NCBI GenBank assembly: GCA_030704615.1
Contig: CM060732.1
Span: forward strand, 60,574,001 to 60,638,000
Reading direction: 5' to 3'
DNA: 64,000 bases
From: Takakia lepidozioides
Taxonomy: Eukaryota; Plantae; Bryophyta
Shown: piece after piece, positions 26,190 through 59,999 of the stretch
Position numbering within the stretch: position 1 is the stretch's first letter
Layout of the letters: each line of letters opens with the position of its first letter
Notes under the pieces: generated by a model
Databases searched by the model: none
Told to the model about the DNA's origin: nothing
Seen by the model: only the letters and a program-made list of their open reading frames with translations
Position numbers and translations under genes: made by a program

Positions 26190-26607
26190 TGGCAATGGAC
26201 ATGACTGGAGGCAGCTAACAAGACATGGGAGGCCAAGCTCATAGGAGTCAATACATGAGATTCCAAGCTCAAGTTCACAGGTTGCAAGATGGCGACTAAC
26301 GATGGGGCAACTCTTGCACCCGGCCTCTTGATCTATCGAGTTTGAGTGTAGTAGGGATAGTGGTGGAGGACTTAGTGAGGCTATGGTCACTATCACATCT
26401 TGTGGCTACCTGGACTTAGAGGGACCTAAGCACCAGCTAGGGGGGCGATTGTGTGGACTAGTGACTGCCATAGTGGGCAGCATAGTGGCAGCCTAGTGAC
26501 TGACTTGTAGCCTAGTGGTTGGACTAGTGGCTGGACTAGTGGTATACTAGTGTGTGGTGTGCACATGTGTTGTGTGGTTTTGGACAGCGATATGTATGCG
26601 CACAACA

Positions 26608-28639: not shown

Positions 28640-28924
28640 ATTAGAGTGAGAGTCATGAAGTCATATGTCTGTCTAGCAATATGCACACGTCATTCCAGTG
28701 TAGCCATGACCGTGACTGGTAGTCATAGCTGCCATGCCAATATTCATGGTCAAACATGTTTGACCTGTGTTGCGCAGAGTCCGGAGCCATGCAGTCGCAT
28801 ATACGCCTTCCCCAGACCTGCATTATGACTTCAAAAGCATTTTACGACTGCAAATGGCATTTCTGCCACAAATCTGTCATGAGCGCACCCATGGGAGTCA
28901 TAAAAGCCGAAATCTGTTGTAGTG
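28640..28924. mobile_element. CACTA terminus (family 2, CACTACAACAGATT on the minus strand) with GTCAT/ATGAC subterminal repeats
   Basis: AATCTGTTGTAGTG ends at 28924. The flank reads AAC on the minus strand, matching the AAC flank of the 51708 terminus. Confidence 0.75.
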
Positions 28925-30252: not shown

Positions 30253-30475
30253 TGCACACTCTCATAGCTGACAGATAAAACAATTCAATTCAGGAAGAAA
30301 AAAAGATTTCACTCATTAGAAGAAAAAAATATTTATTAAGAGAAGGCTCGTCTCGCCATTCCATACATCATCCGGTCTCAAAATTGTTCGAATATCGAAT
30401 ACCTAATACTTGAAAGAACTCGATATATTCTTGTAAGTTGAGGTTCATCCCTTCATTTTCTTATATGTACAATAA

Positions 30476-31127: not shown

Positions 31128-31942
31128 CCCTAGGCATAGGAGGTGGTGCAGGTGGGGCTTGAACCTCAGGCCTTGGAGCTGGTGCAACATGAGTAATGGC
31201 CATGGCAGCAAGACGTTGTTCTAGCTGGGCAAGCCCTATCCACTGCCTTGGTCATGACCTTGACCCTGACCTTGTGCTCCTTGGTTTTGGTTATGACCTC
31301 CACCACGACCTCTGCCTCCTCTACCTCTCTGGACTACATTGCCTCGTCCTCGGCCACCATTGTTCCTTTGGAACTGGCCTGGCCGTAGCTCAAGATGCAA
31401 GTCATAACAATGGGCCTCATCATGCCTATACTTGCCACAAATGCCCACATTGTAATTGTGTAGGCTGTGCCTATGTCGGCCCTTTGCCTCTCTCCGGGCA
31501 ATCCTTCTTAATATGAGGTCCTCCACAATCCCAACAATTCACACCCGACTATTGTTGGCCTGAGGATGAAGGAAGAGGCCTTTGCATCTAAGATCCTCTC
31601 TGTCCTCCCCTGCGCTTCGCTTGAGCCCCCTTGTTGCCCTAAGCACGTTGGGATAGTGCTTATTGTTGACTAGGAGCCCCACTTTGTTGTGTCTCCTTAC
31701 CTAACCCCACCATGACCACTCGCTCCTCCACCATATTGAGCTCTATCCGTTCTACCAGCAAAAACACATTTGCTAACGTGGGTTGGTCCACTTGTAGAAG
31801 AGTTGCATCTCGCACCCTTCTCCTCAGCTCCTTGTCCAATATCCCATACCAGAATTGGACTGCCTAAGCTTCCTAACCCCTTGGGTTACATTTATCAAGC
31901 GCCTCATGCGAGTGTAAGCCTCCCTCAAACTCTTAGTAGGCC
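31128..31942 (-). pseudogene. Diverged gag remnant of a relative of the DNMT retroelement (third, older copy)
   Basis: SLREAYTRMRRLINVTQGV, CGKYRHDEAHCYDLHLELRPGQFQRNNGGRGRG and MAITHVAPAPRPE match the Gag of copies 1 and 2. Cut by the CACTA end at 31943. Confidence 0.85.
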
Positions 31943-32520: not shown

Positions 32521-33479
32521 GGGCAGACGAGGTTCGTGTGGTTTGTCCTGCCGGAGTTTATGGAGGTCTAGAGGTCTACTGAGACTAGTCTACTAGAGTA
32601 GCGTCTACTAGGCCCGAATATCGGAAATTCGAAAAACCAATCGCACAAAACCATGATCCTAACCCACCATAACCCTAATCCATAACCCTAATAATCCAGC
32701 AGCACCATTAAACCAGGACCACAAACCACCCTTACATACCACCATACAAACCACCAGAAGAGAAGCAGCAATGAATTGAAACACCTAAATAGCTTTAATC
32801 AATTCAAACTAATTGAAACAGCTTTGGAAGCAATGAATTCAAACAGCTTTGGAACGAATGAATACAAATGAGATGCTCCGCATCAGACAAGACAGCACAC
32901 TCACGAAACGTGACATGCTAGAAACAAATGGTGCTCTATAATCTCTGGAACGAAAGCGAGTGAGGAAACAAAATCAAACCTACAACGACGTGGGCGATGC
33001 TGACCAATAAGCAGTAAAACAAAAGCAACAGCAAAACAAAAACAAAAGCAAATCAACAAACAGATCAACAAGCACAGGAACAAACTGAAACAGCATAACA
33101 ACAACAAATCTGCAAAACAAAACAAGCCAGAGCGAGCTAGAGAGAATCACATCGAACCTGAGAGAAATAGTAAACAAAAAGATTATCTGCTGGATGCCTA
33201 AGCTATATCAGTGCCTTGTTGATGACCTAAAACGCCTGACCCTTAAGCTTCCACCACTTTGCTCTCCCCTCCGTTCTGTTTCCCTCCCGTCTCATGTCTG
33301 CGCTTGAGAGAGGACTAAGGAAGGATGTGGTGTATGCTTGTGATTTCAAGGATGATTTCTGCAAAGGGCCCCACTGGATATCAAAAAGTAAACTTCTCTT
33401 GAGCCCATCACAAGTTTGCCTTCATTGGAATTGTCTCTCATCTTTCTTATTTCACACTGTAGCTCAACTTTAGGGCTGG

Positions 33480-35556
33480 AGACATGACACTGCCACTGTG
33501 ACAACATGAAAGTATCCAAAAACACGTAACAGAGATGAGGAGAAACTGTGGATGAATACTTTTCTAACCCAAGTCAATGCTGGGACACCGAGGCAAAAAG
33601 GTAAATGCTTGATACATGAGAGTAGCAGACGCAATTCAGTATAGGAACTAGTGTAATAAGCTGAGTTGGGTGTTTCCTAGAACAAATCTAGCTGTCATTA
33701 TCAGCTGCAAGAGACAAAAAGGTGAATGCCTGTTGGACTACAGAGAGAAGCAGATGCAATATAGAATTGGAACTACTATTATAAGTAGGGCTTGGGTGTT
33801 TGCTGGACGGACTTCACGCCGTTAGTGTCAACTGCTAGCAGCAAGGCTGACGATGTATTTATGATTTGTATACAGGCAGGGATATATAGCTGAAGGACTA
33901 GGGATAGAGGTCCAGATTTATCCAAGAGGGCTAGATTTCAAACACAAGATTACTTCTGATTCCCTGTGGATCAATAGCTACAAGTGGATAGATGGTCAAC
34001 TGGAAACGGCAACGGCAACAGCACAATTGATAGAACAAGGCACTGCTGATGAAGGTACCTTCTTCAACACATTTCACCCTGTTTTTCCTGCTATCAGAGT
34101 CGTCCCTGAATTTTGATGTTGAACTCTGCAAGGTAGCTGAGGAGAAGTTCTGGAAGGAATACGTTTAAGACCCCAATGGTGGAACAATCGAGGCAAAAAG
34201 GTGAATGTCTGTTGGAAGTAGACGCAAATCAACATAGGAACTAGTGTGACAAGTAGGGTTGGGGTGTTTGCTGGAACAATTCTAGGTTGCCATTGTCAGC
34301 TACTAACCGCAAAGCAAGGATGTATGCATGATTTTGTGCAGAGGCATGGATAGCTGAAGGGGCAGGGATAGAGTGTGGGTCCAGATTGCTGGATTTCAAG
34401 CTCCAAATTACCTATGATTCCATGTGGAAGGATAGCTACAAGAAACCTGCATGGGTAGATGGTCAACTGGAAGCCGCAGCAGCAACGGCACAATTGATAA
34501 AATCAAGCATTGGTAATCAAGGCACCTTCTTCAACACAATTCACCTTGTTTTTCCCTCTAATCAGAAATCGGTTCTAAATTTTCATGTTCAATTCTGCAA
34601 GTTAGCTGATTGAGTGAACCTTTGATAGTTTGGAGTGACTTTGACAAAGTACTACCAATGTGACAACAGGAAAGTGTCCAGAAACAGGTAACAGAGATGA
34701 GGAGAAGTTGTGGAATGAATACTTCCTGACTCCAGTCAATGGTGGGACAATCGAGGCAAAAAAGTGAATGTCTGATGGATTACAGAGAGTAGCATATGCT
34801 ATTAAGCATATGAACTAGTGTGATAAGTAGGGTTGGGGTGTTTGCTTGAACAATTCTAGGCTGTCATTGTCAGCTGCTAGCAGCAAGGCAAGGATGTATC
34901 CATGATTTGTGCAGAGGTATGGATAGCTGAAGGGGCAGGGATAGAGTGTGGGTCCAGATTCATCCAAGAGGGATGGATTTCAAGCTCCAGATTACCTATG
35001 ATTCGATATAAAATCAGGCACTGGTAATCAAGGCACCTTCTTCAACACAATTCACCTTGTTTTTCCCTCTAATCAGAAATCGGTTCTAAATTTTCATGTT
35101 CAATTTTGCAAGTTAGCTGGTTGAGTGAACCTTTGAGAGTTTGGAGTGACTTTGACATGGTACTACCAATGTGACAACAGGAAAGTGTCCAGAAACAGGT
35201 AACAGAGATGAGAAGAAGTTGTGGAATGAATACTTCCTGACTCCAGTCAATGGTGGGACAATCGAGGCAAAAAAGTGAATGCCTGATGGATTACAGAGAG
35301 TAGCATATGCTATTAAGCATATGAACTAGTGTGGTAAGTAGGGTTGGGGTGTTTGCTTGAACAATTCTAGGCTATCATTGTCAGCTGCTAGCAGTAAGGC
35401 AAGGATGTATCCATGATTTGTGCAAAGGTATGGATAGCTGAAGGGGCAGGGATAGAGTGTGGGTCCAGATTCATCCAAGAATGTTGGATTTCAAGCTCCA
35501 GATTACCTATGATTCCTTGTGGAAGGATAGCTACAAGAAACCTGCGTAGATGGTCA
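33480..35556. repeat. Degenerate tandem repeat, unit ~510-590 bp (about 3.5-4 units)
   Basis: ACTACCAATGTGACAACAGGAAAGTGTCCAG recurs at 34651 and 35162 (511 bp apart). GTAACAGAGATGAG and GTCAGCTGCTAGCAG recur. Related sequence lies at 48570-48740 and 49806-50530. Confidence 0.85.
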
Positions 35557-36256
35557 ATTTCTTGTTGTGGTAGTGCTTAGCAACATCGTGCTTGAAGAAT
35601 GAAGTATATTTTAGGAATGTATATAGGCAGACTGGTTCAAACACCATGTCAGTGTCTGATGTATTAACATCCAATATCGTTCGAAGGTGCAATGTCCTCT
35701 GAGGTTGTGTTGTATGACATGTTTGATTGTAGTTGTGCCTTTCATATGTTGTTGCTTCTGCCAGTCTATGCAACAGGGTTGGTGGTAGAATTTTTCTTTG
35801 CCACTCTTTGCAACTGCCAACAGGGTTGGGGGTCAATTCGTTGGTCATTGAAAGATTAATGCATGCTCTCTTTCCCTGCATAGGGGTTGTGTCTTGGTAT
35901 AGATGGCCTTTCTTCTTTGCCAATTGTTGTGCTTATGAGAGCTCCACAAAGTTAAATTTCATATTAATTTAATTTAATTTAATATCTAAATTAGTCATTT
36001 AAAATTAAATAACATTTAATAAATTGTAAAATCTACATGATCAACAGGTGTCAGTCATACCTGCTCCAACGAAACCACGTGCCATCTGTAGTGTTGTAGT
36101 GATATAGTCATACCCATAGTCGTGTAGTCATAAAGATATGACTACTCCACTGCACCATCAGGTGATGATTACATATGTCAATGCCCAAGGATCCCACATG
36201 TCACGCAGAGGCCTCTCCATGTAGGCGCAATGTTGTAGTGATGTAGTCGTAACCTC

Positions 36257-36963
36257 TGTCGTGCGCATACATATCGCTACACAACTACATCGCTGTCCAA
36301 AACCACACAACACATGTGCACACCACACACTAGTATACTACTAGTCCACACTAGTCCAGCCACTAGTCCAACCACTAGGCTACAACTAGTCAGTCACTAG
36401 GCTGCCATTATGCTGCCTACTATGGCAGTCACTAGTCCACACAATGATAAAGAGGAAGAATACAAGCACAAGCTCATGCGAGCTCACAAAGCTGAAGCAT
36501 AAACTTATGCATATATAACCTCATCACTCAAATACAAGTCAAGCCAAGTGCACCCCACGCCATGGGGAATCCACACTACGGCGCCATAGCTAGGCGCGGT
36601 GAGGCTCAACTCGAGAAAGATGAGCCTCATGCGCTTGCCGTGAAGATAACCACTCCAGGGCCTAAATCTGCCTTGACCCCTGGATTGACACTTGGGCCAA
36701 TCCCAAATGTCAATATGTAAAAGCTAGCTATTTCCTAGCTAGTTTCACACTAGTGGTAAAATAACTTGACAGCTGTCGTGCGCATACATATCGCTACACA
36801 ACTACATCGCTGTCCAAAACCACACAACACATGTACACACCACACACTAGTATACTACTAGTCCACCACTAGTCCAGCCACTAGTCCAACCACTAGGCTA
36901 CAACTAGTCAGTCACTAGGCTGCCATTATGCTACCCACTATGGCAGTCACTAGTCCACACAAT
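36257..36963 (-). repeat. 3' repeat block of copy 2: B1 (36962-36774), GC, A2 (36771-36445), B2 (36444-36257)
   Basis: A2 matches A1 (47984-48310) with one difference seen in 327 bp. B1 and B2 (~189 bp) differ at about 4 positions. Confidence 0.93.
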
Positions 36964-37221
36964 CGCCCCCCTAGCTGGTGCTTAGGTCCCTCTAAGTCCA
37001 GGTAGCCACAAGATGTGATAGTGACCATAGCCTCACTAAGTCCTCCACCATTATCCCTACTACACTCAAACTCGATAGATCAAGAGGCCGGGTGCAAGAG
37101 TTGCCCCATCATTAGGCGCCATCTTGCAACCTGTGAACTTGAGCTTGGGATCTCATGTATTGACTCCTATGAGCTTGGCCTCCCATGTCTTGTTAGCTGC
37201 CTCCAGTCATGTCCACTGCCA

Positions 37222-40200
37222 CTATCCCAAGCAGTGTGGACACAACCAATCTCCGTCAGGAACCTTCTCAAGAGGTGGTGTCAAGCATCCCATATGCCAA
37301 CCCCTTGAGCATCGATCACACACCAGCATGGTGGCTGCCCCTTTGGCAGACCCACAAAGCATGCACCTCAAACCTGCAGGTACCACTGCCAAGTTTGGGT
37401 CAACTCTGCCATCGACATTGGGAAGGTGACATGGCGCACAATTACGCACATGGTCCTTCCAAGTCATGCCATCCCGACCCTCCAAGATCAGGACCCCTGA
37501 GGGCAACACCTCTCGAACCCTCAGAATAACACGCCCTGCAGTAACATCCAGAGTCGTAGGAGCAGTCTGCTGCAAATAAACATAGTCACCAGGGCTAAAC
37601 CTCCGAACCCCAGGACGATATCCTCCACCACGTATAGTGGCATACCTCAACGTATCACGGTGTTGTGCAATGGCAAGGTTCTCAAAAGCCATGGGCATGA
37701 CTTTCTTGAACAACTCTGCACGCTGATCACATGCACGTACCCACACGTCCGGATCGTCAAGGTTAAGGACTTGAGCAGTGTCCCTACGAATGGCTGCAGG
37801 CAAATCCGGCTCCCGGCCAAAGAGAAGGAAATATGGTGAGAAGGAGGCAAGTGATGCTTGTTTGCTGAACCTGTAGCCCATGGCTAACCAAGGAACCTGA
37901 AGATCGCAATCTCCTAGGTGTCCCTTCTGCAAGCCATACTTGCGCAAACCCCTCTTCACCGTCTGAACAACTCTCTCTGCTAAGCCATCGGCCTCAGGAT
38001 GATCCCGAGAAGTGGTGCGGTGGTCTATCAAGGCTTTATCACACAAAGCCTGAAACTCCCCCAAGAACTCTCTCCCTTGGTCCGTGAGTACCTCAGCTGG
38101 AGCACCAAATGGCTAAGCACACGATCCAAGAATGCATACGCAGCCCCCTCACTAGCCTTGTCAGGCAATGGAACCAACTCAATCCACTTGGAGAAGTGCT
38201 CCACCATCACCAACACATATCTGTGGTGGCGCACAGTCAGTGGCAACGGTCCTGCGAAGTCAAGACTCCATCTGTAGCCCAATCCCATGATAGGTAAAGG
38301 ATGCAACTGTGGTGTAGGGGCGTTAAACGAAGCACGCACCCTGTCACACACCATGCACCTAGCCACAAACTGTTGCACCTCTGTATGCATACCACGCCAC
38401 CAATACTGCCCCTGCAGTAAACTGTGAGTGCGTCGCACTCCAAAATGCCCCAACTCCTCATGGGCATGCCGCACTAACCGTGCACGCTGTGTGGGGTGAG
38501 GCACAATCCTCACCCGACCACCCTCCCACACTCGAAGTAGGTGTATCCCCTCCCACTTGAACCTCTTGGCTCGTTGTAGGATCCGATCCCTCTCCCTGGC
38601 AGTCACAATGGCTGCCGTGTCTCCCGTGCGGAGGTAGTCCAACACAGCTGAATCCTCATGTATATCTCTGGCACCACCTAGCTCATCACTAGCCTCAGGG
38701 TCCTCAGACACTCCGTCTACAGTCATCCCTGTTGTAGGTCCAATCTGACCTCCCGATGCCAAGATACACAAAAATGCAGATGCGTGCCATCCCGGCACCA
38801 TCTCCTCGTCCGTCTCACCATGCCACCGAGCTCCAGTGTCATCCTGCTGGCTCATGCATGGATTGCGACTCAATCCATCCGCATCCCGATTGACCAAACC
38901 CGGTCGATGCACAACCTGAAAGTCATACTCCTGGAGTATAAGTGCCCACCGTGCAAGCTTCCCCGTAAGCTTGTCTGACTCCATCAACCACTTGAGTGGC
39001 TGGTGATCCGTGACAAGGGTGAAAAGATTGCCGTATAGATAGCACCTGAAGTGTGCCACGGCCCACACTGCAGCTAAGCACTCTCCCTCATATGAGCTGT
39101 ACTTAGCCTCTGCAGCATTGTTCGAGCGGCAAGCGTAAGCCACTACGAACTCTCTTCCCTCATCATCCACCTGTGTGAGCACCGCTCCAAGCCCCAGCAT
39201 GCTCCAATCCGTATGCAGCTGAAAGGGACGCCCCCTGATAGGTCGTCTCAAGATAGGCGCCGAGGTCAACCTCGCCTTGAGCTCTTGAAAAGCTCGTTCC
39301 TGCTCATCTTCCCACTGCCACTCCTGGTCCACCTTGGTCAGCTTGGTTAGAGCCTTTGCAATGGTACTAAATCCCTTGACAAACCGTCTATAATAGTTTG
39401 CCAACCCCATGAAAGCTCGAACTCGGCTCACATCCGTGGGGCATGGAATTTGTGCAATGGCCTCTACCTTAGTCTGCTGTACCCCCAATCCTCCAGGATA
39501 TATCATGTGACCCAGATACTCAATCTGGTTGTGGAAAAACTTGCACTTCCCCGGATGCAACTTCAATCCGTGCGCTCTCAAGCGCTCCAATACCACCTGA
39601 AGGTGTCTCTCATGCTCCTCCATCGTAACACTAAAGATGATGATGTCATCTATGTAGCACCGAGCAAAGTCCACCCCTGCTAGAATCCTATCCATGACTC
39701 TCTGAAACTCTGCAGGAGCATTCTTAAGCCCAAATGGTAAGAACCGCCACTGATATAGGCAATCCTTGCCGTGCTCATTGATCCCCCAGAATGCCGTCTT
39801 CTGCTTGTCCGCCTCCTTGATTGGCAACTGGCGATATCCGGATCGTAAATCCAAAGTGCTAAAGGCCTTAGCATGCCCGATGGCATCAAAGATCTCCTCT
39901 GGTGTTGGCATGGCATACTTATCGGACTTGGTCTGACGATTTACAGGCCGGTAATCACCGCACATACGTCTCTCCGTCCAATTGCCATAGACATCCTTCT
40001 TGGCTGGCATCACTGTGGCTGAAGCATACTCTCCACCAGAGAGCTCCACCAAACCTGCCTCCCAGAGATCTTGAGTCCTCATCTGAATCAAAGACCTCTC
40101 CATGTCACTGTATCTATAGGGTCTCCGAAAGATTGGCGTGTCAGTGGCCAACTCAATACGGATCTCTTGACCCTTCAGTGCTCCCAAGTCCTTCAAACTG

Positions 40201-40355
40201 AAGGCAAAGCAATTCCTGTAAGCCCTCAGGAACCGCCGTATACGTCGTCTCTCTCCTCCGGTGACAATGGGTCCAATGTCAGGCTCCCAATTGTCCTCCG
40301 TAACTACAACCTTAAGTCCAGTGGGCTTAGAGGTAGAGGACGCGTCCCATGGTTG
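37222..40355 (-). pseudogene. Copy 2 pol: RT - RNase H - integrase (HHCC, DDE) - PHD finger; one frameshift at ~38110
   Basis: 722-aa and 280-aa ORFs with YIDD, TDWS, HAHEELGH..CMVC, SLDFAG/TDQG/AER and CMLCGSAKGAATMLVCDRCSRGWHMGCLTPPLEKVPDGDWLCPHC. Confidence 0.93.
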
Positions 40356-43300
40356 CTATGCTGCAACCTCTTGAGCAGTACTCCCTACCTGCTCAGTCAA
40401 TGACAAGGCCTCATCCTGCCCCATCATCTCATCCTTGAGGACCTCCTCAACCCGAGAAGAATCCCCAACCTCATCCATCACAGCCGCCTTGGCTGCCAAC
40501 TCCCTCTAACCTCGAGCACCTCCCACGTGTGCCATGGATGCATGCACCCCGTGGTCCTCATATGCTCGCCCCCACTCACTGCCTGTACCGTCTCGGTAGG
40601 CAGAGAGACCATTGAGGGAAGTGTATTCCGCACTCTGCGTTGCTCAGCTAGAGCCAAGCTGATAATCCAGGTCAAGCAATTGAGATCCATTGCTTGCCCC
40701 AACACTTGACGACGTGATGCCTCAGAAAGAGACGACACCGCCGTGGTACCAGTGGTAAAACCCATTGCCCACTCACGCTCGTCAGCATTAGGCTCCACTA
40801 ACTGCTGCAACTGAGCATCCCACAGGAGGCCAGGTCCACTATCCCGGAAAGCATGCGATCCTGGGAAGCTGAGCAGTGTAGGTAATGCTGCTCGTGGTTG
40901 ACCCACCTTGTTGACCACTGCCAAAGGCGAACGGTCATCGTGTCTCACACGTTGAGACTGCCTCCCTGTGTCCAGAATGTTATCCACTGTGAGATGTGCT
41001 GGCCGCTGCACCCCATCAAATGCACGCTTGAGCAGTGCGGGTGGCATCATGTTAGTCCACCATAGCCGTGGACGATGAGCCCGTGACCCCACTGTAGCTG
41101 CATCTAGCAACACTGCTGACCCAAGCCACGACCGGACTTGATGCACACTGGCCATCACCCTGGCCCGAGAATCGCCCATCAGTGGCACATTCTCCAAGAT
41201 GTATGCTGGAGATACAGCTTGATGAAGCTGCAAGTGGCGCAAAACCCGCACCATCTCCCAAAACAGACCCGACCTCGAGTCTCGCAATCCATTGCCATGC
41301 CCGGCTGATGAATGCCCTTGGCAGGGCCAACCTGCCACTACCAGATCAATGGAGCCAACCCGCTCCAAATCCTGCGCCCCCAGCAACGAAATGTCTGCTG
41401 GCAAGGCCTGCTGATATCCACGAATTGCAGACACCGACAACAACTCAGGGTACCGCTGCACCAACTGAGCAACATGGCGAAGTGAAACGCGTCGTGCAGT
41501 CTCATCCCTCTCCACATATAGGTAACGCCGAACTCGTACACCTGCCTGTAACACAGCAGCCAATCCGGTGCTGATCCCGCCAAACAAGTCCAGAAGACAA
41601 ATGCCTTCATCCGGAGACTGCCACACAATAGGTGTGGTGTCCAATGGAGACAATTGAGGTGGTCCTGGTGCAATCCCCACACTCTCCTCCTCTCCTGACG
41701 GTACAAAAGCCTCACCCAGGCTTGTTGCACCCGTCGATCAGCATCCCGCTGCAAATCCTTGCTCGTGCCCCACAATGGAGTCTGAGCAACCATGGTAGGC
41801 AACTCCGCCATACCATACATGTCATCCTGCTCTCCCGGAGGTGGTACATCCTCTGAATGAGCATTGCCCTCAAGCAACTCTCTAGGCCAACTCACTGCCG
41901 CTGTGAATGCTGCTAGTGTCGGCATCTTGCCTCGCTGGGCAACCGCAACTCCTCCTATGAACGTCACAGGGAGCTGCACACGCCGGCCCTCCCCTGACTG
42001 CCATGCAGGCCTATAGGAAGCTGACTCCTCCCAAAAATCCAGGGTGAAGCCCATGGGGTACAACACTGCCCCACCAACCAGGACATCGTATGAGACTGCG
42101 TCTGTCACAATGGCCTTGGCTCGCATCACTGAGCCATCTGTAGGGTGATCCGGCCGTAGTCTGATAGCCAACTCATGCCGTGTCATGCCCCGAGCCTGCT
42201 CCGATCCTCCCAGAGACGTCTGTATCTGGAAAGGACAAGGCTCCATATCTGCCTCCGTGAGGCCCAAGCCTGCAATAGCAGCTCTGCCCAGCATCAGTGG
42301 CTGAGCTCCCGAGTCCAACAAGACTCGCAGTGGCCGGTACCTCTTGCCTGCCGGTCCACTCAAACAGAAAATGCCATCCTGGTTGTCTAACATGACAACT
42401 CCAGGTGTCACCATGGCGCGCTCAATTGCTGGCCTAGCTGGCAGCTCCATCAACCTGGCAGCTGCAGCTTGCCATGGCGCCGCCGTGGCAGTCTTGACCC
42501 TCAAATCCGAGGATCCCTCCGGCACTACACCTCCCACTATCTCCGCAGAAGATGAAGTAACCTCCCCACTCTCACAGAGTGTAGCTGCCAGCCTGAACAC
42601 CTCAGCTGGTCTTATCCCCGGCGTCGCAATCATGGTAGCCGAGAACAATGGAGCCTGGCACACAGATGTGGCCGCTCCTAACAGCACACTAGCTGCCGTA
42701 GCCTTGGCAACACTAGGTAGTGGTGCTGCCCGTGTAGCTCTCCCCAATGGCATAGTAACCTCCGCCTCGGTAATAGTCGGGCAAGAACTAGGTGCCATGG
42801 GTGGCGTCGACACTGTCTCCGCCAATGTGAATGACTGAGGAAGCCTAGCCTGACGGCTTGCCTCCCCACGCTGTGGATCCAACTCCACCTCTGCACCTCG
42901 TGGCTCAGGAACTCGTGCTGCTCCTCGAGTCACGGTTGCAGCAGACTCCACCTGCACTAGTGGTAGTGCTGCTCCACACATGAATCCCATGCCTCCCATA
43001 TCTCCTCCCTCAGGAGCAGGAGGTGGACCATCCGGCCTTAGAGCCGGTACCACCTGAGCTGTAGCCATGGCAGCGAGCCTCTGCTCTAGCTGCTGAAGCC
43101 GGTTGGCCATGCCTTGGTCAACACCCTGACCTCCGCGTCCTTGGCCACGTTGAGCTTGCCCTTGGCCTGCACCTCGTGGCTGGCCACCTCGTCCTCTCTG
43201 GGCTGCTCCACCTCGCCCCCGGCCACCATTGTTCCCTTGGAACTGGCCTGGGCGCAACTCAGGATGCAAACTATAACACTGGGCCTCTCCATGCCCGTGC

Positions 43301-44319
43301 TTGCCACAATGCCCACACTGCAACTGTGCAGGCTGTGCATGTGCCGACCCTTTGCCTCCCTCTGGGCAATCCTTCTTGACATGGGGTCCTCCACATGTCC
43401 AGCACACCACATCCGCCCGTTGTTGGCCAGCAAATGAAGGGAGAGACCCCTGCATTTGAGGTCCTCTCTGCCCTTCCCTGAGCTTCACCTGAGCCCCCTT
43501 GTTGCCTTGAGCACGTTGAGGTAGTTGTTGGCTAGGAGCACCACTACCCCGTGGTGTCTCCTTAGCAAATCCCACCATGACCACTCATTCCTCCACCATG
43601 TTGAGCTCTATCCGCTCTGCCAGCAAAAACACATTTGCTAAGGTGGGTTGGGCCGCTTGTAGGAGAGTTGCATCCCGCACCCTTCTCCTCAGCTCCTTGT
43701 CCAATATCCCATACCAGAATTGGACTGCCTGAGCTTCCGTAACCCCTTGGGTTACATTTATCAAGCGCCTCATGCGAGTGAAAGCCTCCCTCAAGCTCTC
43801 GGTCGGCTTCCGTTGGAACTCTTGCAAGCTCCGCAACTTCTCTGTCCTCACCCCTTGGTAGTTCCCTCTCAACTCTTCGAAGAACTCCACAACAGGGTTG
43901 AAGGCAGGCACGGGTGCTAGTGCTGGTGCGGTAGTGGCTTGGGTGGACGTCGTAGCTACTGTACCACCAGTCCCACTGCTGCTTGCTGAAGCTGCCGGTG
44001 CAGCGGCAGGTGTAGCCACTGCCCTCGTGGCTCTAGTGCCCCTAGTGATGGAGACATAGTCGGGTGACCAGTACATCCTCCACTCCTCGATCTCAACCTC
44101 ATGCCCCCGCCTGAACTCATGGTAATCATCCATAGGCGGCCCCTCAAGGTGCTGAAACAGCCCTTTCCATGCCATGAACGGCGTAAATAGTTGTGGATTG
44201 CGCATTTGCTGCAAATCACACCAACTATCAAACTCTTGGATAAAATCATCCAACTCAATGGTGCCCACCGCCCCAGAGTACCTTCGTGGCCCCTTGGTAG
44301 CTCCATACATCTCCTCCAT
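40356..44319 (-). pseudogene. Copy 2 ORF1: Gag - 2 Zn knuckles - RGG-rich - aspartic protease - C5 DNA methyltransferase; one nonsense and two frameshift lesions
   Basis: Gag from MEEMYG..ELDDFIQEFDSW (the true start may lie upstream). TGA at 43585 (CGA in copy 1), frameshifts at ~41713 and ~40508. Ends at TAG 40358-40356. Confidence 0.9.
40657..41602 (-). CDS. C5 cytosine DNA methyltransferase domain (DNMT3/Dcm-like), uninterrupted in copy 2
   Basis: Motif I LLDLFGGISTG, II YVERD, IV DLVVAGWPCQGHS, VI YILENV, VIII RAHRPRLWWTN, IX-X EREWAMGFTTGTT..SRRQVLGQAMD, in canonical order within the 400-aa ORF 40478-41680. Confidence 0.93.
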
Positions 44320-44464
44320 TGTGTCCCACAATAATGGCAAAGAAACAACTTGCACCGCCGGTATGAGCCCTCCTGATTTACAATCCGAATCAGAACCTTC
44401 CGTGGAAGACACAGGAGGTGAAGGTGGCCTAAACCGCACACCTCGTCTCGTGTACCCACTAGTA

Positions 44465-46452
44465 GGCCACTGGGCACAGCCTGTCACAGCCCCTCACAGC
44501 TCGTCACAGCCTCAAAGGCCTCAGGCACAGCCTGTCACAGCCCCTCACAGCCGTCACAGCCCCAAAGGCCTCAGGCGCGGCCTGTCACAGCCCCTCACAA
44601 CCCGTCATAGCCCCAAAGGCCATGGGCACGGCCTGTCACAGCCCCTCACAGCCCGTCACAGTCTCAAAGGCCTCAGGCACGGCCTGTCACAGCCCATCAC
44701 AGCCCCAAAGGCCTCAGGCATGGCCTGTCACAGCCCGTCACAGCCCGTCACAGCCCCAAAGGCCTCAGGCGCGGCCTGACACAGCCCCTCACAGCCCGTC
44801 ACAGCCCCAAAGGCCATGGGCACGGCCTGTCACAGCCCCTCACAGCCCATCACAGCCTCAAAGGCCTTAGGCACGGCCTGTCACAGCCCCTCACAGCCCG
44901 TCACAGCCCCAAAGGCCATGGGCACGGCCTGTCACAGCCCCTCACAGCCCGTCACAGCCTCAAAGGCCTCAGGCACGGCCTGTCACAGCCCCTCACAGCC
45001 CGTCACAGCCCCAAAGGCCATGGGCACGGCTGTCACAGCCCCTCACAGCCCCTCACAGCCTCAAAGGCCTCAGGCACGGCCTGTCACAGCCCATCACAAC
45101 CCCAAAGGCCTCAGGCACGGCCTATCACAGCCCCTCACAGCCCGTCACAGCCCCAAAGGCCTCAGGCGCGGCCTGTCACAGCCCCTCACAGCCCGTCACA
45201 GCCCCAAAGGCCATGCGCACGGCCTGTCACAGCCCCTCACAGCCCGTCACAGCCTCAAAGGCCTCAGGCACGGCCTGTCACAGCCCCTCACAGCCCCTCA
45301 CAGCCCCAAAGGCCATGGGCACGGCCTGTCACAGCCCCTCACAGCCCGTCACAGCCTCAAAGGCCTCAGGCAGGGCCTGTCACAGCCCCTCACAGCCCCT
45401 CATAGCCCCAAAGGCCTCAGGCAGGGCCTGTCACAGCCCCTCACAGCCCGTCACAGCCCCAAAGGCCTCAGGCACGGCCTGTCACAGCCCCTCACAGCCC
45501 GTCACAGCCCCAAAGGCCTCAGGCACGGCCTGTCACAGCCCCTCTCAGCCCGTCACAGCCCCAAAGGCCTCGGGCACGGCCTGTCACAGCCCCTCTCAGC
45601 CCGTCACAGCCGCAAAGGCCTCGGGCACGGCCTGTCACAGCCCCTCACAGCCCGTCACAGCCGCAAAGGCCTCGGGCACGGCCTGTCACAGCCCCTCACA
45701 GCCCGTCACAGCCGCAAAGGCCTCAGGCACGGCCTGTCACAGCCCCTCACAGCCCATCACAGCCCCAAAGGCCATGGGCACAGCCTATCATAGCCTGTCA
45801 CAGCCCCACAGGCCTCAGGGCACAGCCTGTCACAGCCCCGCACAGCCCGTCACAGCCCCAAAGGCCACTGGGCACAGCCTGTCACAGCCTGACACAGCCC
45901 GTCACAGCCCCACAGGGCACAGGGCACAGCCTGTCACAGCCCATCACAGCCCATCACAGCCTCAAAGGCCTCAGGCACGGCCTGTCACAGCCCCTCACAG
46001 CCCATCACAGCCCCAAAGGCCATGGGCACAGCCTGTCATAGCCCGTCACAGCCCCACAGGCCTCAGGGCACAGCCTGTCACAGCCCCGCACAGCCCGTCA
46101 CAGCCCCAAAAGGCCACTGGGCACAGCCCGTCACAGCCCCAAAGGCCACTGGGCACAGCCTGTCACAGCCTGACACAGCCCGTCACAGCCCCTCACAGCC
46201 CATCACAGCCCCAAAGGCCATGGGCACAGCCTGTCACAGCCCGTCACAGCCCCACAGGCCTCAGGGCACAGCCTGTCACAGCCCCGCACAGCCCGTCACA
46301 GCCCCAAAGGCCACTGGGCACAGCCTGTCATAGCCTGACACAGCCCGTCACAGCCCCACAGGGCACAGGGCACAGCCGGTCACAGCTTGCCACAGCCTGT
46401 CACAGCCCGTCACAGCCCGTCACAGCTTGCCACAGCCTGTCACAGCCCCACA
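44465..46452. repeat. Element-internal tandem array, 51-bp unit GGCCTGTCACAGCCCCTCACAGCCCGTCACAGCCCCAAAGGCCTCAGGCAC
   Basis: Direct reading. About 2.0 kb here versus ~1.5 kb in copy 1. Confidence 0.93.
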
Positions 46453-47983
46453 CATGGCCGCTCTGGCAGTTTAGCCATTTCTCCAAGGGGTTTAGCCACG
46501 CCAAGCTAGGGTTTGTGTCTCTTGGACTCTAGGCTTCTTTCCACCGAGCTATGGTGGCTGTGAGGAAATCAGCAAGGTATCCTTGCTCTTTCGGCTCCCA
46601 CACACCACCATAGTAGCCCTAAGCCATGAGGTGGTTGCCACAAACCAAGCCTTCTTTCTCACTTAGCCTACCCAAACACGCCACTAAACTCAATGGCAAA
46701 CAACCAAGCCCTGCTGGTTCCCAGCCCTTGTGAGCACTCATTCAAGCACTCTCCTTGGCCATAGCATCTGTCTTAGAGCCTCTTCCAGCCCCCTACACCT
46801 GCTGCTTCAAGAGTTGCGCTCCCTTCAAGCTTGAAGTTGAAACCCCAACTCACATAGGCCCTACAAGTGCTTTTCTTTCACTCCAAGTGGAAACCAGCCC
46901 TAGACCTTCCGTTCTAGCTCTCTAAAGCTTGAAAACAAGAGCCTCAATGGGCTGAAGGCATGCTCCACACATGCCCCACTCTCACCATAAAAGAATCAGC
47001 TCCTTTGCTTCATTTCTTGCACCACAAACCTGAAAATACAAGCTTCAGCATGCTGAAAGCATGCTCCACATGCCCTACAGGGAAACCAGCCCCTTCCTTC
47101 CTTTCTTGCACTCCCACACCTGAAAGTGCAAGCCTTCACCAGGCTGATAGCATGCTCCACACATGCATTGCCCTCACATAAGGGAAGTCAGCCCTTCCCT
47201 CTTCCTTGCTTGTCCTCCAAGCTTGAAGATGGAAGCTTCAATGAGCTGAATACATGCTCCACACATGCAACCTCTTCACACAAGAGATATCAGCCCCCTA
47301 TCTTGGCTCCTTGGCTCCTTGATGCTCTCTAAGACAAGACTAAGAACTCCATAGCCTTTGCCAAGCTCCTGAAACCCTAAGGCTTACATTTCCAGCCACA
47401 AGACACTTCTCTTGTGGTGCAAGAGCTCTTCTTCCAAGCTCTGTAACCCTAGGTGCACATTCCATGGCCTTGCCGCACCTCTTAGCTCCTGTTCCAGCCC
47501 TGCTCTCGCCATGACAAGAGCCCTCTCAATGCTGAAGCTCGAGATTGAAACCCAATCTCACCATACTCCACAAAGTGCACTGATTTGCCCCAAGCCAAAT
47601 CAGCCCTTTCGCTTGGTCTTGCAATCCTTCACACAATGACAGCTCGCATTCCCAAGTCCAGTTCTCAGCTTTGCCACCAAAGCCACTATAACCTGCTCTT
47701 GACTGGTCCTCTTCCCAATCGTGCTTGCTCATGCATGTACACAATCTGAAACCATCAAGGTGCTCTGGAATTACCTACAGTATGGTGCTTTCATCTCTGA
47801 AGCTGAAGATCGAATGCCAAGGTTTACCACCTCGTAACCCACATCGCCTCCGCTTCTAACAACCAAGAGCTCCACGGTGCTCCTTGCATAACAACTTGGT
47901 TTCTCTCATTCTCAAGCAAAAACCACAAGTGCTACAACTAACTCGTATCTAGCACTCATAGATACGAGCTCATCTTTCTCGAG

Positions 47984-48310
47984 TGATAAAGAGGAAGAAT
48001 ACAAGCACAAGCTCATGCGAGCTCACAAAGCTGAAGCATAAACTCATGCATATATAACCTCATCACTCAAATACAAGTCAAGCCAAGTGCACCCCACGCC
48101 ATGGGGAATCCACACTACGGCGCCATAGCTAGGCGCGGTGAGGCTCAACTCGAGAAAGATGAGCCTCATGCGCTTGCCGTGAAGATAACCACTCCAGGGC
48201 CTAAATCTGCCTTGACCCCTGGATTGACACTTGGGCCAATCCCAAATGTCAATATGTAAAAGCTAGCTATTTCCTAGCTAGTTTCACACTAGTGGTAAAA
48301 TAACTTGACA
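47984..48310 (-). repeat. A1 terminal repeat (327 bp) of copy 2; homologous to 15336-15662 in copy 1
   Basis: Near-identical to 36445-36771. Begins TGTCAAG and ends TTTATCA on the element strand. Confidence 0.93.
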
Positions 48311-48519
48311 CCTCAGTCATAACTTTCAGTCGTGTAGTCATATTTGTTATGACTACATCACCAAACCCTGCATCACCCTCAGTGACGACCATGACTTCGC
48401 ACTTATCACTCCGTAGTCATGGTAGAACTGACTTCGTGTTTGTCACTGCAGAGTGAGGTAGTCATAACAACACTTATCACTGCTATTCATAGTCATAAAA
48501 ACGTTAATCTGTACTAGTG
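48311..48519. mobile_element. CACTA terminus (CACTAGTACAGATT on the minus strand); its subterminal GTAGTCAT repeats continue at ~36040-36256
   Basis: AATCTGTACTAGTG ends at 48519. Dense AGTCAT/ATGACT motifs flank copy 2 on both sides. Confidence 0.65.
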
Positions 48520-49329
48520 TTGGCCCTGAGATGCATATTGAATTTTGTAAGTTAGCTCATTGCTCATTGATAAGTAGGGTTGGGGGTGTTTGCTGGAACA
48601 ATTCTAGGCTGTCATTGTCAGCTGCTAGCAGGAAGGCAAGGATGTATGCATGATTTTGTGTAGAGGCATAGATAGCTGAAGGAGCAGGGATAGAGTGTGG
48701 GCCTAGATTCGTCCAAGAGGGCCGGATTTCAAGCTCCATTATTTCAGTGTCATCCATTCAGCCAGGGATTTCTTGGTGACATTGCCAAGGCTTTACTCGC
48801 CACACGATGCTTGTAAAGCTTCCTTAGCTTGAATGCTGATTATGCTTGAATTATTAGGTTTGTAAAGCCAGTTTTGAAATTTTCATAGTAATCAGCTCTC
48901 TTGAAAATCTGTAGGTTGCAAGCCATTTACAGCGGGCCGTGGGTGGACTAGAAGACAACCATTGAAAATCTTGGTGCGTTAATACCAATGGAGAGCAGTG
49001 TAAGCTTCATATGCCCTTTTGGTGCTAGTTATCTTCATGTATGGTATTGTTGAACACCAACAATCTTTTGGTGAGATTATGTCTTGGTGCACGTGTCTGA
49101 TAAAGAAAAACGGTAATGTTTGTTCTGAAACTTGAAGGCGTGAAATGATTCAACACAGCAAGAGCATTACGCGTGTCACAGTACAAGTTGTAAGAAAGCG
49201 AGAGATACATAGTTATACAGTCAAACAGACAACTATCAGTTTCTGTGGAATCTCTTGCCAATGGCAGGATGGGTTGGGAACAGCCAAGTCAAGAGGTGAA
49301 TGCCTGTCAAATTACCACATGTCCTTCTG

Positions 49330-49800
49330 AACACTGCCCCTGCCCTGGTGGACATGTATGCCAAATGTGGGTGCATTGAGGATGCCAAGGGAGTGTTCAA
49401 CACTGTGGCTGAACGAGATGTGGTGTCGTGGAGTGCGATGCTTGCAGGGTATGCACAGCTGGGGTGCGGGATGGAGGCTCCAACCTTTGAGCAAATGATG
49501 GGGGAAGAGGTGAAGGCCGCCAACATAAGGTTTGTGTGCCTTTGCAGTGCGTCTGGCAGCCCTGGAAAAGAGCAAAGAGATCCCTGGTGACATCATCAAA
49601 TCTGCAATTGTACCAGATGTCATCTTGAACATTGCTCTGGTGGCCATGTATGCTAAATGTGAGAGCATTGAGGATGCCAAGGGAGTGTTCAACACTATGG
49701 CTGAACTAGATGTGGTGTCGTGGAATGCGATGCTTGCAGGGTGTGCAGAGCAGGAGCGAGGGATGGGGCTTTGGACACCTGAAAACAAATGATGGGGAAA
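49330..49800 (+). pseudogene. PLS-class pentatricopeptide repeat (PPR) gene fragment, frameshifted
   Basis: ALVDMYAKCGCIEDAKGVFNTVAERDVVSWSAMLAGYAQLG and ALVAMYAKCESIEDAKGVFNTMAELDVVSWNAMLAG in different frames. Confidence 0.88.
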
Positions 49801-49805
49801 GGGGT

Positions 49806-50530
49806 GAAGGTACCTTCTTCAACATATTTCACCATGTTTTCCCTGCTAGTGTTTGCTTTGAAAATTCTAGGCTGTCATTGTCAGCTGCTAGCAGCAAGGC
49901 GTGGATGTATGCATGATTTGTGCAGAGGAATGGATAGTTGAAGGAGCAGGGATTTCGTGTGGGTCCAAATTCATCCAAGAGGGCCAGATTTCAAGCACAA
50001 GATTACCTGTGATTCCCTGTGGATCAATAGCTACAAGAAAGCTGCATGGGTAGATGGTCAACTGGCAGCAGCGGCACAAGTGATAAAATCAGGCACTGCT
50101 AATGAAGGCATCTTCTTCAACACATTTTACCCTGTTTTTCCCTCTTATCAGAATCGGCCCTAAATTTCCATGTTCAATTCTGCAAGTTAGCTGGTTGAGT
50201 GAATCTAGTTTTGAGTGACTTTGACATGATACTGCCACTGTGACAACAAGAAAGTGTCAAAAAACAGGTAACAGAGATGAGGAGAAGCTGTGGAATGAAT
50301 ACATATCTGAGCCCAGTCACTGATGGGTCAACCGGGGTAGAAAGGTGAATGCTTGCTACATTTCAGAGGGTAGCAGACGCAATTCAGCATATGAACTTGT
50401 GTGCTACGCTGAGTTGGGTGTTTCCTAGAACAAATGTAGGCTGTCATTGTCAGCTGCTAGCAGTAAGGCAAGGATGAATGCTTGATTTGTGCAGAGGCAT
50501 GGATAGATGAAGGAAGAGAGATAGAGTGTG
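49806..50530. repeat. Further unit(s) of the 33480-35556 tandem repeat family
   Basis: Shares GAAGGTACCTTCTTCAACA, GATTCCCTGTGGATCAATAGCTACAAG and GTAACAGAGATGAGGAGAAG. Confidence 0.85.
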
Positions 50531-51189
50531 GGTGACGCAGGGTGCTGGGCAATGGGCTAGACGTCTTTGTATAAACGTGAGTGACCTTCATATCCTCCTG
50601 GCTCTCATTTTTAGTGCATGTTTCTTTGTGAAGTATCTGACGACTTCGCCAACACACACCAACCTTTTTGCTTTGGTTTGTTTACGAGTCTATGGGATAG
50701 AAGTTACCATAAACAACATTGGCATTGGTTTTTCATATATGGTATTAGATAATTCTCTTAACTGTTTCCGCCTTGGCAGGTTGCTCAGTGACCTTCCCTG
50801 GACGCTTTGGAGTATAGCGAGTGAGTGTCTCACAATGCAATGTTGGTTGGTGCATCTTATGCAAGAACTTGGAAAACAAACAGACGTCCTTGCTGTAGTA
50901 ATTCTTAAAGCCATGCAAGCCTTAGTTTTTGATGGGTTGCAGATTGATGGAATACATGAGTAGTTAGAAGATTCTGGGTGAACACTTTTCAAAGTGTTAT
51001 AGTTAGACAATATAATTCACATGAGAACATGTGACTATTTTATGTATTTTTAGATTGCGACAAAAACGATATGATAAATAGATTGGTAAATAGAGATGGT
51101 GTACAATCTCTTGGTTTTGCTCAGCTTGTTGGAGTTATGTCTTGCTGCCTTGTTCCTTTGTATTATATATTATATTTCATTGTTGTAAT

Positions 51190-51708: not shown

Positions 51709-53625
51709 AACATTCCCCGAGAAAGTTGCACATGCTCGGAATTTCTTCGAGCTGAGGGGGAGACCGAAAAAGTACAACGATCACATAACAAAGTTGGAGA
51801 CTAGACAATGGAATGTAAATAATTCATTGTGTTTTTTGTTCCTTTTACTAGAAAACCAAAATATTTTCAAGCTCGGATTTAATGTGACAAACGGAAAGTT
51901 CCATCATTCAAATATTCGATTTGCTGAAGTCTTATGTAATGTCTGTTGTTTCGTAATGAGGTGTTTCTCCACTTGGAACAATTTTGCAAATGTGCTGATA
52001 AAATACTTGAAAAACCATATGACCATGAAAACTTGATGTTTCGGATGACGCATGCAAAAGATTTCATGGTCTTCTGGTATTTCATTTGTGGAACTGTTCC
52101 TAGTGGAGAACATGAACATATTGGATAAATTTGACTTGGAGGAGCACCGCATCACGAAGCAGGAGACACTACGGAAAGAGCTTCAAATTACAAGGCACGA
52201 CAGGATGGACGGAAATGAATTGACAATCGAATCATCCTTTGGAGTATAGTATAATTGACATGATAGTTGTAACTTTTGTTTCATCTCAAAAATCAAATAT
52301 CAAATATCGAGTGAAATGTCTAATTTTGGCCCTGATCATTTTCACGGGAATTTATGCAAGCATGTCAACTCATACTGGAGATGAGTAGCGTGGAGAAGGC
52401 CATGGTTCTAGATCTCTGTGACGAAGACGTATGGAACCTCTGGGAGGAAGTGTTCAAACAGTGGGAGTAAGGAAAGCTTATTGATAGTTTCGGGATTCAG
52501 TGCAAGGGTGAACAACTACCGCTGAATAAAACCGCTATCGCGAAACTGCAAGGACTTAATAGCAGGCAGTTGAAAAGAGTGGCGGAGAAAATCCTGAACA
52601 GGAACATTTACATTCGGGGAACGAAATTCAAATGCGCGGACAAATCCAAAAATACAATGAGCGCGTATATTGACCAAATGAAATTGCGACGGTTTATTAT
52701 CGACAATGTAATGGAAGTCTTAGGATGGCCTCGGAGGAGCAAACAGAACCCGGAACCGTACACCAAAGTGAAATGGTGTGATGTGAAAAAAAAATACAAC
52801 TTCAACAAAGCTGAGTTTGAAACTTTTCAAGATCGGCTCGGGAATGACTACATTGTAAGCAAACAGAAGATGAATATGGAGACGTAGCCAATGACTTCTG
52901 CCTTCAAAAAGTATGTCTTGTTGTGCAAGCAGATCTTTGAGGATAACCAAAACGTCCTGGCGATTCTACGTACGAGCTTCAGGTCCCATTACACACAGCT
53001 GGGGGGGAAACCAAAAATTTGTTGATGCCAGATCACTGTTGGGACTTGCGCCGAAGAAACGGTTTGACGACATATCGATGGTGTTCGTCAATACAGTTTG
53101 TGATGATGACTCTGTTGTCTTCGAGGCAAAGGACTACTCCAATATCCTAGATGCTTTTGTGGCTAGGAAGCTCATGTCCAGTGCTTTTGTGTAACTTTTC
53201 TCGACACAAGAATCATCGGGAAATCTTGTGGCATACATCCGGAATGGTCCTGGATCAAAGTCGTTTAATATCCGACAAGGTTATTACATTCCCTGCGAGT
53301 TTGAATCACCTTACAAGAGCTGCACGACTATATTCTCCCGGACGGTCCTCTGCCTCGACTACGTATTTCGGGCAACAGCTGAGGAGATGGTGAATCCGGA
53401 CGATCACATTCAAACTGTTTTGTTAACGCCGGACCCAATTAATCCCGTTATCCAAGGACCAGATGTAGACCCGACCTCGCAGGAGAAGGAGTGCAGGACT
53501 TACACTCATGAGCTGACGGCAGACACCTACGATTACATGGTCTTTTTTTTTGCAGGGACGGGATGTCTTGTGTGAATGTTTTTGGAGGAGTGGCAATGAC
53601 ATACATTTTGCTTGTAAGGGGATTC
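51709..53625 (+). pseudogene. C-terminal part of the ParB-like TE gene, ending in an N6/N4 (beta-class) methyltransferase-like segment; degraded
   Basis: Continues the frame from 28925 (AQKFDT-TFPEKVAHARNFFELRGRPKK). Long interrupted frames at 52380-53575. C-terminal ELTADTYDYMVFFF/CRDGMSCVNVFGGVAMTYILLVRG resembles a SAM-binding motif I region. No clear DPPY. Confidence 0.45.
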
Positions 53626-57100: not shown

Positions 57101-57419
57101 CATCAAGACAAATCCATATTTCCGTTCGCACATCTTTGTGAACAACCACTAACTGTTTCGATACTTTTCTTGTAGATCCAAGAATCCCAATCGGAGGAAA
57201 TGACAAACACACGAACTGGCTCAAAGGAGACTCAAATAGTGAAGAGCCACGTGGATTTGACAGTGAGGGTCAGGTCACCTGAGCCGGTTCTCCAAGTAAC
57301 CTCCACTGTCCAGTCGACGTTGCCATCTGCAGGGAATGGGTCGGAGAATCCTCCTACTCGCGGGGAAGTAGAAGAGACGGAGCAGCACAAGCGCATAATC
57401 CAACAACAGATCCCGATTT

Positions 57420-59900: not shown

Positions 59901-59999
59901 TACGTAGGTTTCTCTAGTTCCCGGATATCCAGTGTATTAAACATCGTATATCTTCTCGTCCTAGTTCATCTTCTTCGTCCTCGTCCTCGTCCTCGTCCT

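Follow-up and report, generated by a model that had tools for sequence, protein, structure and literature searches.

A Ty3/Gypsy retroelement of Takakia lepidozioides with a DNMT3-like domain, split terminal repeats and a palindromic internal junction

The window analyzed here, a 64,000-nucleotide stretch of the Takakia lepidozioides genome (GCA_030704615.1, contig CM060732.1, positions 60,574,001 to 60,638,000), contains two copies of a Ty3/Gypsy retroelement that encodes a C5 cytosine DNA methyltransferase (DNMT) in the same frame as Gag and the protease, and a PHD finger at the C-terminus of the integrase. We place the element in the Gypsy-DNMT3 clade and propose, with a probability of roughly 0.6, that the DNMT methylates the element's own cDNA and that the integrase cuts a palindromic junction located inside the element, not the natural cDNA ends.

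The two copies and their coding capacity

Copy 2 occupies positions 36257-48310 on the minus strand, with exact limits, and is flanked by a 4-bp target-site duplication (TSD), CCTC. Copy 1 lies in the inverse orientation and is about 97% identical to copy 2 across 7 kb. The layouts of the two copies differ at the ends: with A and B denoting two repeats and int the internal region, copy 2 reads A-int-B-GC-A-B and copy 1 reads A-int-B only. Copy 2 is young, as a single base of 327 separates its two A repeats. A contig joint that bypasses the copy-2 insertion is present in three of the four sequencing runs examined and may stem from a paralogous repeat in the flank.

Both copies encode, in this order, Gag, two CCHC zinc knuckles, an aspartic protease (PR), the DNMT, reverse transcriptase (RT), RNase H (RH), integrase (IN) and the PHD finger. 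Pfam profiles recover DNA_methylase (E 5e-13) and PHD (E 4e-11), the two domains on which an earlier, sequence-only reading of the window had centered, together with RVT_1, RT_RNaseH and Integrase_H2C2; rve and Retrotrans_gag score under the curated cut-offs, and the DSG motif of the protease and the zinc knuckles (CX2CX3HX4C and CX2CX4HX4C), which have no Pfam match, were taken from the translation. Copy 1 and the coding features of copy 2 are as follows.

15336-26607, plus strand: copy 1, laid out as A-internal-B, with TSD TACC and several frameshifts, two of them in the DNMT
37231-37365, minus strand: PHD finger, integrase C-terminus (Pfam)
37366-38495, minus strand: integrase (H2C2 zinc finger, DD(34)E core), frameshifted near 38110
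38925-40355, minus strand: reverse transcriptase and RNase H (Pfam)
40350-40358, minus strand: in-frame TAG with CAACCA behind it (CARYYA readthrough context), end of open reading frame (ORF) 1
40658-41635, minus strand: DNMT3-like C5 cytosine methyltransferase domain, open, with the catalytic motifs present; a frameshift near 41713 severs it from the protease
41995-42399, minus strand: aspartic protease, DSG motif, limits approximate (translation)
43270-44319, minus strand: Gag, two zinc knuckles, one in-frame stop
44473-46448, minus strand: 51-bp tandem array of about 39 units in the 5' leader, also present in copy 1 (17197-18695)

The sequence-only reading had described two TSD-bounded copies with this domain order, and the boundaries, Pfam matches and translations bear it out. 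The DNMT motifs FGG, E, PCQ, ENV, RxR and GQA are found in both copies, so that the DNMT of copy 2 is indeed intact in its motifs and that of copy 1 frameshifted yet motif-bearing, as had been stated, but copy 2 as a whole is damaged, with frameshifts near 41713 (between PR and DNMT), 40508 and 38110 and an in-frame stop in gag (43585-43587). Copy 1 has more frameshifts than copy 2. The claim that the DNMT lies inside the Gag-protease ORF also stands, the Gag-PR-DNMT fusion being directly readable only in copy 1 (ORF 20321-22426) and in relatives. About 800 bp of the copy-1 leader (18695-19492) are missing in copy 2, and about 540 bp of gag are missing in copy 1. The 51-bp leader array, unequal in length between the copies, contains a 553-codon stop-free antisense frame (44871-46532, plus strand).

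In both copies, ORF1 (Gag-PR-DNMT and a linker) ends at a TAG that is in frame with RT and followed by CAACCA, which fits the CARYYA context required for UAG readthrough in tobacco mosaic virus (PMC2754532). An in-frame stop 15-22 codons ahead of the RT core is present in all 23 loci compared, with CAR next in 22, but these loci represent about four families and most are of one family or duplicates. Database proteins of about 1250-1430 amino acids correspond to Gag-PR-DNMT and end at the ORF1 stop; more distant members of the clade, including that of Klebsormidium nitens, are fused across this position. With a stop separating Gag-PR-DNMT from RT, the DNMT would be made at the level of Gag in this subclade.

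The methyltransferase, the integrase and their clade

Among sequences in PDB, the DNMT domain matches DNMT3A and DNMT3B best, above DRM2 and M.HhaI. A structure model built on a 36-row alignment reached a predicted local distance difference test (pLDDT) score of 94.2 and was used instead of a single-sequence model (pLDDT 34); its top fold match is DNMT3A (E 1.6e-19, template modeling score 0.72). Sequence and fold comparison thus show an unrearranged DNMT3-type domain with its catalytic residues. The nearest named relatives of the domain are found in Marchantia and Calypogeia (both <=75% identity) and in Sphagnum, followed by Closterium and Monoraphidium, and 261 cluster representatives match it at E < 1e-30. 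These bryophyte relatives agree with the earlier assignment of the element to a land-plant-like genome. Viral contigs yielded nothing with an RT and only distant methyltransferases, 29-48% identical over part of the DNMT domain.

A quick IQ-TREE search of 71 RT-RH rows united 62 of them in one clade (Shimodaira-Hasegawa-like approximate likelihood ratio test, 99), with poorly resolved order within. This clade includes the window element, a K. nitens protein, elements of Marchantia, Closterium, Haematococcus and Monoraphidium and many unnamed proteins, and shows two architectures, PR-DNMT-RT and RT-RH-DNMT-IN; two Haematococcus elements with chromodomains fall outside it. The DNMT tree (FastTree), which was built without host DNMT3 or DRM, recovers the same bryophyte-like subclade and sets the prokaryotic enzymes apart. 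Four members of the RT-RH-DNMT-IN-PHD type (L058, L056, P0039 and P0047) extend several hundred residues past the PHD finger. The DIRS-like protein P0058 combines an RT and a DNMT related to the clade with a Dam domain on its record, and is a possible link between the DNMTs of DIRS and Gypsy elements.

The DNMT is retained across the clade. Of 60 aligned DNMT domains, 56 retain Cys, Glu and RxR, and a search with RT only retrieved 42 clade proteins, 40 of them with a DNMT match, from a set that was limited to long proteins and left out two near-duplicate Haematococcus rows and most animal rows. Between families, the ratio of nonsynonymous to synonymous substitution rates (dN/dS), approximate because it comes from a custom counting script, is 0.07-0.20 for the DNMT (five of seven pairs with unsaturated dS) versus 0.04-0.10 for RT. 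Between close copies it rises to about 0.5-0.65 for the DNMT, and most other domains drift likewise. The sequence-only reading had named neutral evolution of the DNMT, or its absence from most copies, as the outcome that would overturn it; the low between-family ratios and the 40 DNMT-bearing proteins point the other way. Three clade DNMTs (P0318, P0326 and P0300) have lost catalytic motifs and are still placed between RNase H and integrase.

The integrase core is of the DD(34)E type in the window element and in 38 of 39 scorable clade proteins (48 scanned), versus DD(35)E, the spacing expected of Ty3/Gypsy, in all 16 outgroup motifs. Pfam detects no chromodomain, which separates the element from chromoviruses; a PHD finger occupies the integrase C-terminus instead. 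The best single-domain matches of this finger are the PHD1 domains of KDM5B and KDM5A, then ATXR5, DPF, BHC80, BAZ2 and UHRF1. All 29 clade PHD fingers have Gly or Ala, and never an aromatic residue, two positions ahead of the His, and an Asp follows the third Cys in 28, a pattern that, judged by known structures, fits readers of unmodified H3 and not of H3K4me3. The predicted role of the finger in reading histone H3 tails is in keeping with these features.

The K. nitens protein P0312 (PR-DNMT-RT-RH-IN, 45% DNMT identity, DD(34)E) shares the RT clade and the domain order of the window element and presumably corresponds to KnitGypsy-Dnmt3, a Gypsy element with a DNMT in Pol under purifying selection (de Mendoza et al. 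2018, PMC5890265). The legend of Fig. 4c in that paper describes the repeats of KnitGypsy-Dnmt3 as arranged like those of DIRS; a DIRS-like repeat layout is found in the window element and in the relatives L042 and L056, the K. nitens layout being known from the legend only. In a Gypsy backbone, a DNMT3-type domain under purifying selection and DIRS-like repeats, the two elements are alike. They differ in that the algal DNMT shares one ORF with RT, whereas the window subclade has a conserved stop between them (a variant of the subclade and not a clade-defining loss), and in the host, an alga as opposed to a bryophyte-like plant. The portion of that paper available to us mentions no PHD finger, self-priming, junction palindrome, TSD or integration model. 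Chlamydomonas Gypsy-7a_cRei and REM1 are Gypsy elements with a PHD finger for which an effect on insertion site choice has been proposed (PMC9940879); the polyprotein of Gypsy-7a thus resembles that of the window element in its PHD finger, whereas a DNMT is not listed for it in the part of the source at hand.

The novelty of a Gypsy element combining DNMT and PHD finger was therefore overstated in the sequence-only reading, given that the KnitGypsy-Dnmt3 clade is published and PHD-bearing Gypsy polyproteins are in print. DNMT-bearing Gypsy elements are known in kind; what is new is the host range, land plants, and several mechanistic details. We found no literature on Gypsy-DNMT3 elements of bryophytes, nor on Gypsy elements whose long terminal repeats (LTRs) are split or permuted or that contain an internal junction, and Repbase, Craig's 2021 thesis, the REM1 paper and the supplement of PMC5890265 may cover some of either subject. 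The present analysis extends these elements from one alga to land plants and to a large clade across green algae and bryophytes, and the relatives in the model plant Marchantia make the function of retrotransposon DNMTs testable.

Split ends, self-priming and the palindromic junction

The element is Gypsy by its proteins and atypical by its ends. It has the Gag-PR-RT-RH-IN order with Gypsy-type RT and RNase H, and a primer binding site (PBS), a polypurine tract (PPT), TG...CA termini and TSD are all present; two full direct LTRs immediately inside the TSD are not. The ends of copy 2 are made up of the following features.

36253-36256, no strand: left TSD CCTC, partner at 48311-48314
36257-36444, minus strand: repeat B2, 188 bp, 3' terminus ...CACGACA
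36445-36771, minus strand: repeat A2, 327 bp, TG...CA, 1 mismatch to A1, blunt join to the start of B2
36768-36777, no strand: palindromic junction GACA-GC-TGTC between B1 and A2, putative integrase attachment site
36774-36962, minus strand: repeat B1, 189 bp, immediately after the polypurine tract
36963-36975, minus strand: polypurine tract-like site, common to relatives
47968-47984, minus strand: primer binding site of 17 nt that can pair with a site inside A1
47984-48310, minus strand: repeat A1, 327 bp, 5' terminus TGTCAAG...
48148-48164, minus strand: putative self-primer inside A1

Copy 2 accordingly has the order A1-PBS-internal-PPT-B1-GC-A2-B2, and each terminus of the insertions equals one half of the palindrome GACA-GC-TGTC. 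Under the standard LTR scheme, the positions of the PBS (after A) and the PPT (before B) imply a cDNA with the LTR B-GC-A at both ends, and the element is a circular permutation of such an ordinary two-LTR cDNA, opened at one GC spacer. These permuted ends, the more unusual part of the element, had been overlooked in the sequence-only reading, as had three other traits that recur in distant relatives: the PBS pairing with the LTR, the stop in readthrough context ahead of RT and the DD(34)E integrase.

The same layout recurs in relatives. L042 has A and B sequences unrelated to those of the window and yet the same arrangement, a 4-bp TSD and the same junction core, and split ends are also found in L056. 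A...B is flanked by a 4-bp TSD in all five two-ended insertions, namely, copies 1 and 2, L042, L033 (internally rearranged) and probably L026 (A mostly deleted). Behind PPT-B, the junction palindrome is present in copy 2 and in 6 of the 16 locus tails scanned (L021, L042, L035, L038, L058 and L056), including RT-RH-DNMT-IN types with about 40% DNMT identity. The spacer is GC in six of these seven junctions and GT in L035; CG[A/T]CA-GC is likewise present in six of the seven, and in L056 the arms covary, giving CGTCA-GC-TGACG, which is still palindromic. For the exact 10-mer, 0.06 occurrences are expected per window; it is present in 4 of 89 loci, always at the junction site. The A|B join, by comparison, is variable: blunt in copy 2, with 2 extra nucleotides in L056, and with 16 in L033 that start with PBS sequence.

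Perfect complements of 16-17 nt between the PBS and A are present in three families with distinct sequences (copy 2; L042 and L037; L035), whereas shuffled sequences reach at most 9-11, and a fourth family has an 11-nt self-primer complement (shuffle maximum 10). This pairing of the PBS with the element's own LTR points to self-priming. Tf1/Sushi, Tcn1 and Tj1 have a PBS complementary to their own 5' LTR (PMC6317226, PMC4600332), the same arrangement as in the window element, and a gag/pol stop is a further likeness within this group; Tf1 and Tcn1, as described there, differ in being chromoviruses with ordinary paired LTRs, whereas the window element has a PHD finger. The folded leader RNA has a z-score of -8.3 in the window and -1.2 in L042, with the PBS stem formed in both. 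Immediately after the PBS, the fold contains a strong hairpin (47930-47960, minus strand).

Action on abutted ends has parallels among DDE enzymes. IS3 and IS30 transposases act on circle junctions. HIV-1 integrase can cleave the palindromic junction of 2-LTR circles (PMC1905944, PMC4372172), a likeness in enzyme and substrate to what we propose here; the difference is that the HIV-1 junction, as presented in those sources, arises from cDNA ends in a side route, whereas here it is encoded in the LTR and is apparently the regular attachment site.

Proposed cycle, alternatives and genomic setting

In the cycle that we propose, translation of ORF1 would yield Gag-PR-DNMT and readthrough of the TAG would add RT-RH-IN-PHD, making the DNMT abundant in the particle. 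The 5' end of the RNA, given its complementarity to the PBS, would pair with it and prime synthesis, with the plus strand starting from the PPT. At the left junction, the DD(34)E integrase would cleave both strands at CA^GC^TG, and the two halves, which match the termini observed, would be inserted with a 4-bp duplication. Cleavage behind CA on each strand leaves a 3' CA and a 5' overhang of 2 nt at either end, as in processed retroviral ends. The two natural ends of the cDNA would become joined, either before integration, as a 2-LTR circle, or after it, leaving A-int-B-GC-A-B with the A|B join as their remnant; thus, insertion probably proceeds from a circle-like DNA form and not via the natural ends. 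Copies of the A-int-B type may come from a one-LTR form or from recombination between B1 and B2 and would be dead ends. The PHD finger would tether the integrase to nucleosomes with unmodified H3 N-termini. The DNMT likely methylates the element's own cDNA and marks new copies, which would arrive already CG-methylated.

Taken alone, the internal-junction part, that is, regular integration of a green-lineage-wide Gypsy clade via a pre-formed palindromic junction inside the LTR, appears quite probable to us, and if true, it would be a third way between linear LTR integration and recombinase-based DIRS integration. An added link, in which the DNMT marks the conserved CG beside the junction and thereby chooses the junction to be cut or protects the chromosomal one, is speculative and improbable.

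Several observations weigh against the proposed cycle. Ten of the 16 scanned tails show no junction: in two, B is followed by flanking sequence, a third is truncated where B ends, a fourth is interrupted before the PPT and six are perhaps too short. All 10 distinct flanked 5' ends begin with A and none has B ahead of it, an asymmetry at odds with a symmetric 2-LTR circle, which should yield the mirror product A-B-GC-A-int-B equally often. B-junction-A-PBS does occur in two unflanked contigs, L035 and L055, likely through assembly collapse. Six of the 10 copies tested have a self-primer complement of only 8-13 nt, near the shuffle maximum. Strict CARYYA follows the stop in only 4 of the 23 loci, and 18 have CAACCC-ATG, permitting reinitiation, and most of these loci, as noted, are of one family or duplicates. 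As for the DNMT, 4 of the 60 aligned domains are altered or incomplete and 2 of the 42 proteins lack it, even in a search that favored proteins with extra domains. CpG depletion is barely stronger in the coding region (observed/expected 0.52) than in the flanks (0.58-0.63), and transitions between the copies affect 50 of 522 CG (9.6%), 51 of 772 CHG (6.6%) and 61 of 2556 CHH sites, as would be expected from methylation by the plant host. CpG content thus lends no support to self-methylation.

Two other explanations carry some weight. The DNMT might be selected for a role other than cDNA methylation: it might modify DNA or RNA of the host or target, bind nucleic acid in the particle or contribute to the particle's structure. 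Expression at the level of Gag fits a structural role, CpG loss is not increased, motifs are altered in a few lineages, and the KnitGypsy-Dnmt3 enzyme gave no methylation in yeast, a result that its authors called inconclusive and that also weighs against our proposal (PMC5890265). On the other hand, retention of Cys, Glu and RxR in the great majority of the domains argues for cytosine catalysis, a DNMT released in the particle would meet the cDNA first, and the related SymbioDIRS-Dnmt3 domains methylate CG in yeast (same source); we therefore consider a non-cDNA role the less likely option, while giving it more weight than any other alternative. Somewhat less likely still is a templated route like that of DIRS and PAT elements, in which the RNA would extend into B2, the B1-GC-A2 junction would template both termini via a circular cDNA, and A|B would be inherited, the DNMT playing the same part. 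PAT, Toc and Ngaro elements have split direct repeats in the order A1-coding-B1-A2-B2 (PMC4157794), the layout seen here, a templated route would account for the single permutation observed, KnitGypsy-Dnmt3 has been described as DIRS-like in its repeats, and the nearest outside DNMT is carried by the DIRS-like P0058. Yet the conserved self-primer PBS right behind A1 and the PPT right ahead of B1 would set ordinary LTR ends, and the A|B joins are unlike between elements, some with PBS-derived bases. Furthermore, PAT, Toc and Ngaro elements, according to that source, encode a tyrosine recombinase, whereas a DDE integrase, 4-bp TSDs, a PBS and a PPT characterize the window element; no match to a tyrosine recombinase was detected in the five ORFs scanned, and the leader has no long ORF outside the tandem array that could hold one.

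Passive, neutral capture of the DNMT, with the odd ends produced by local rearrangement of a normal LTR element, would be compatible with the broken state of both window copies and with the high dN/dS between close copies. Given that the other domains of close copies drift equally, that purifying selection is strong between families and that the DNMT and RT trees share the bryophyte-like subclade, we regard capture as excluded and the DNMT as retained and selected; the same end layout in L042 and L056 rules out local rearrangement, leaving this explanation with a negligible probability.

The proposed internal-junction cycle has consequences beyond this locus. The end structure implies a DDE retro-integrase acting on an internal abutted junction, which is unused in textbook LTR integration, and tools that demand a TSD around an LTR pair are expected to miss or mis-trim such elements, so an abundant class of them may be under-annotated. 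More than 100,000 contigs matched the element in each of two runs (X1 and X2), with alike summed contig depth over DNMT and RT, which suggests a very abundant family but does not yield a copy number.

Both window copies sit within repeats, too few to show targeting. Copy 1 appears to be inserted into a plant long interspersed nuclear element, a zf-RVT match (E 2e-8) being located at 13647-14153 (minus strand), beside the copy-1 start near 15336; copy 2 interrupts a degenerate repeat whose period is about 470-570 bp (33464-35576 and 48578-50614). No Rfam match was found in the element and no tRNA in the window. A gag fragment at 31166-31941 (minus strand), with no ends or pol nearby, belongs to a related subfamily and shares 80% identity with copy 2. 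Weak Pfam matches below the cut-offs include bHLH-MYC_N (8875-9261, minus strand), NIF phosphatase (59460-60086, plus strand) and DNA polymerase B exonuclease (52471-52884, plus strand). A short imperfect palindrome, AACCTCCACTGTCCAGTGGAGGTT-like, occurs seven times within 27825-30262 and 55213-58207 and possibly derives from a DNA transposon.

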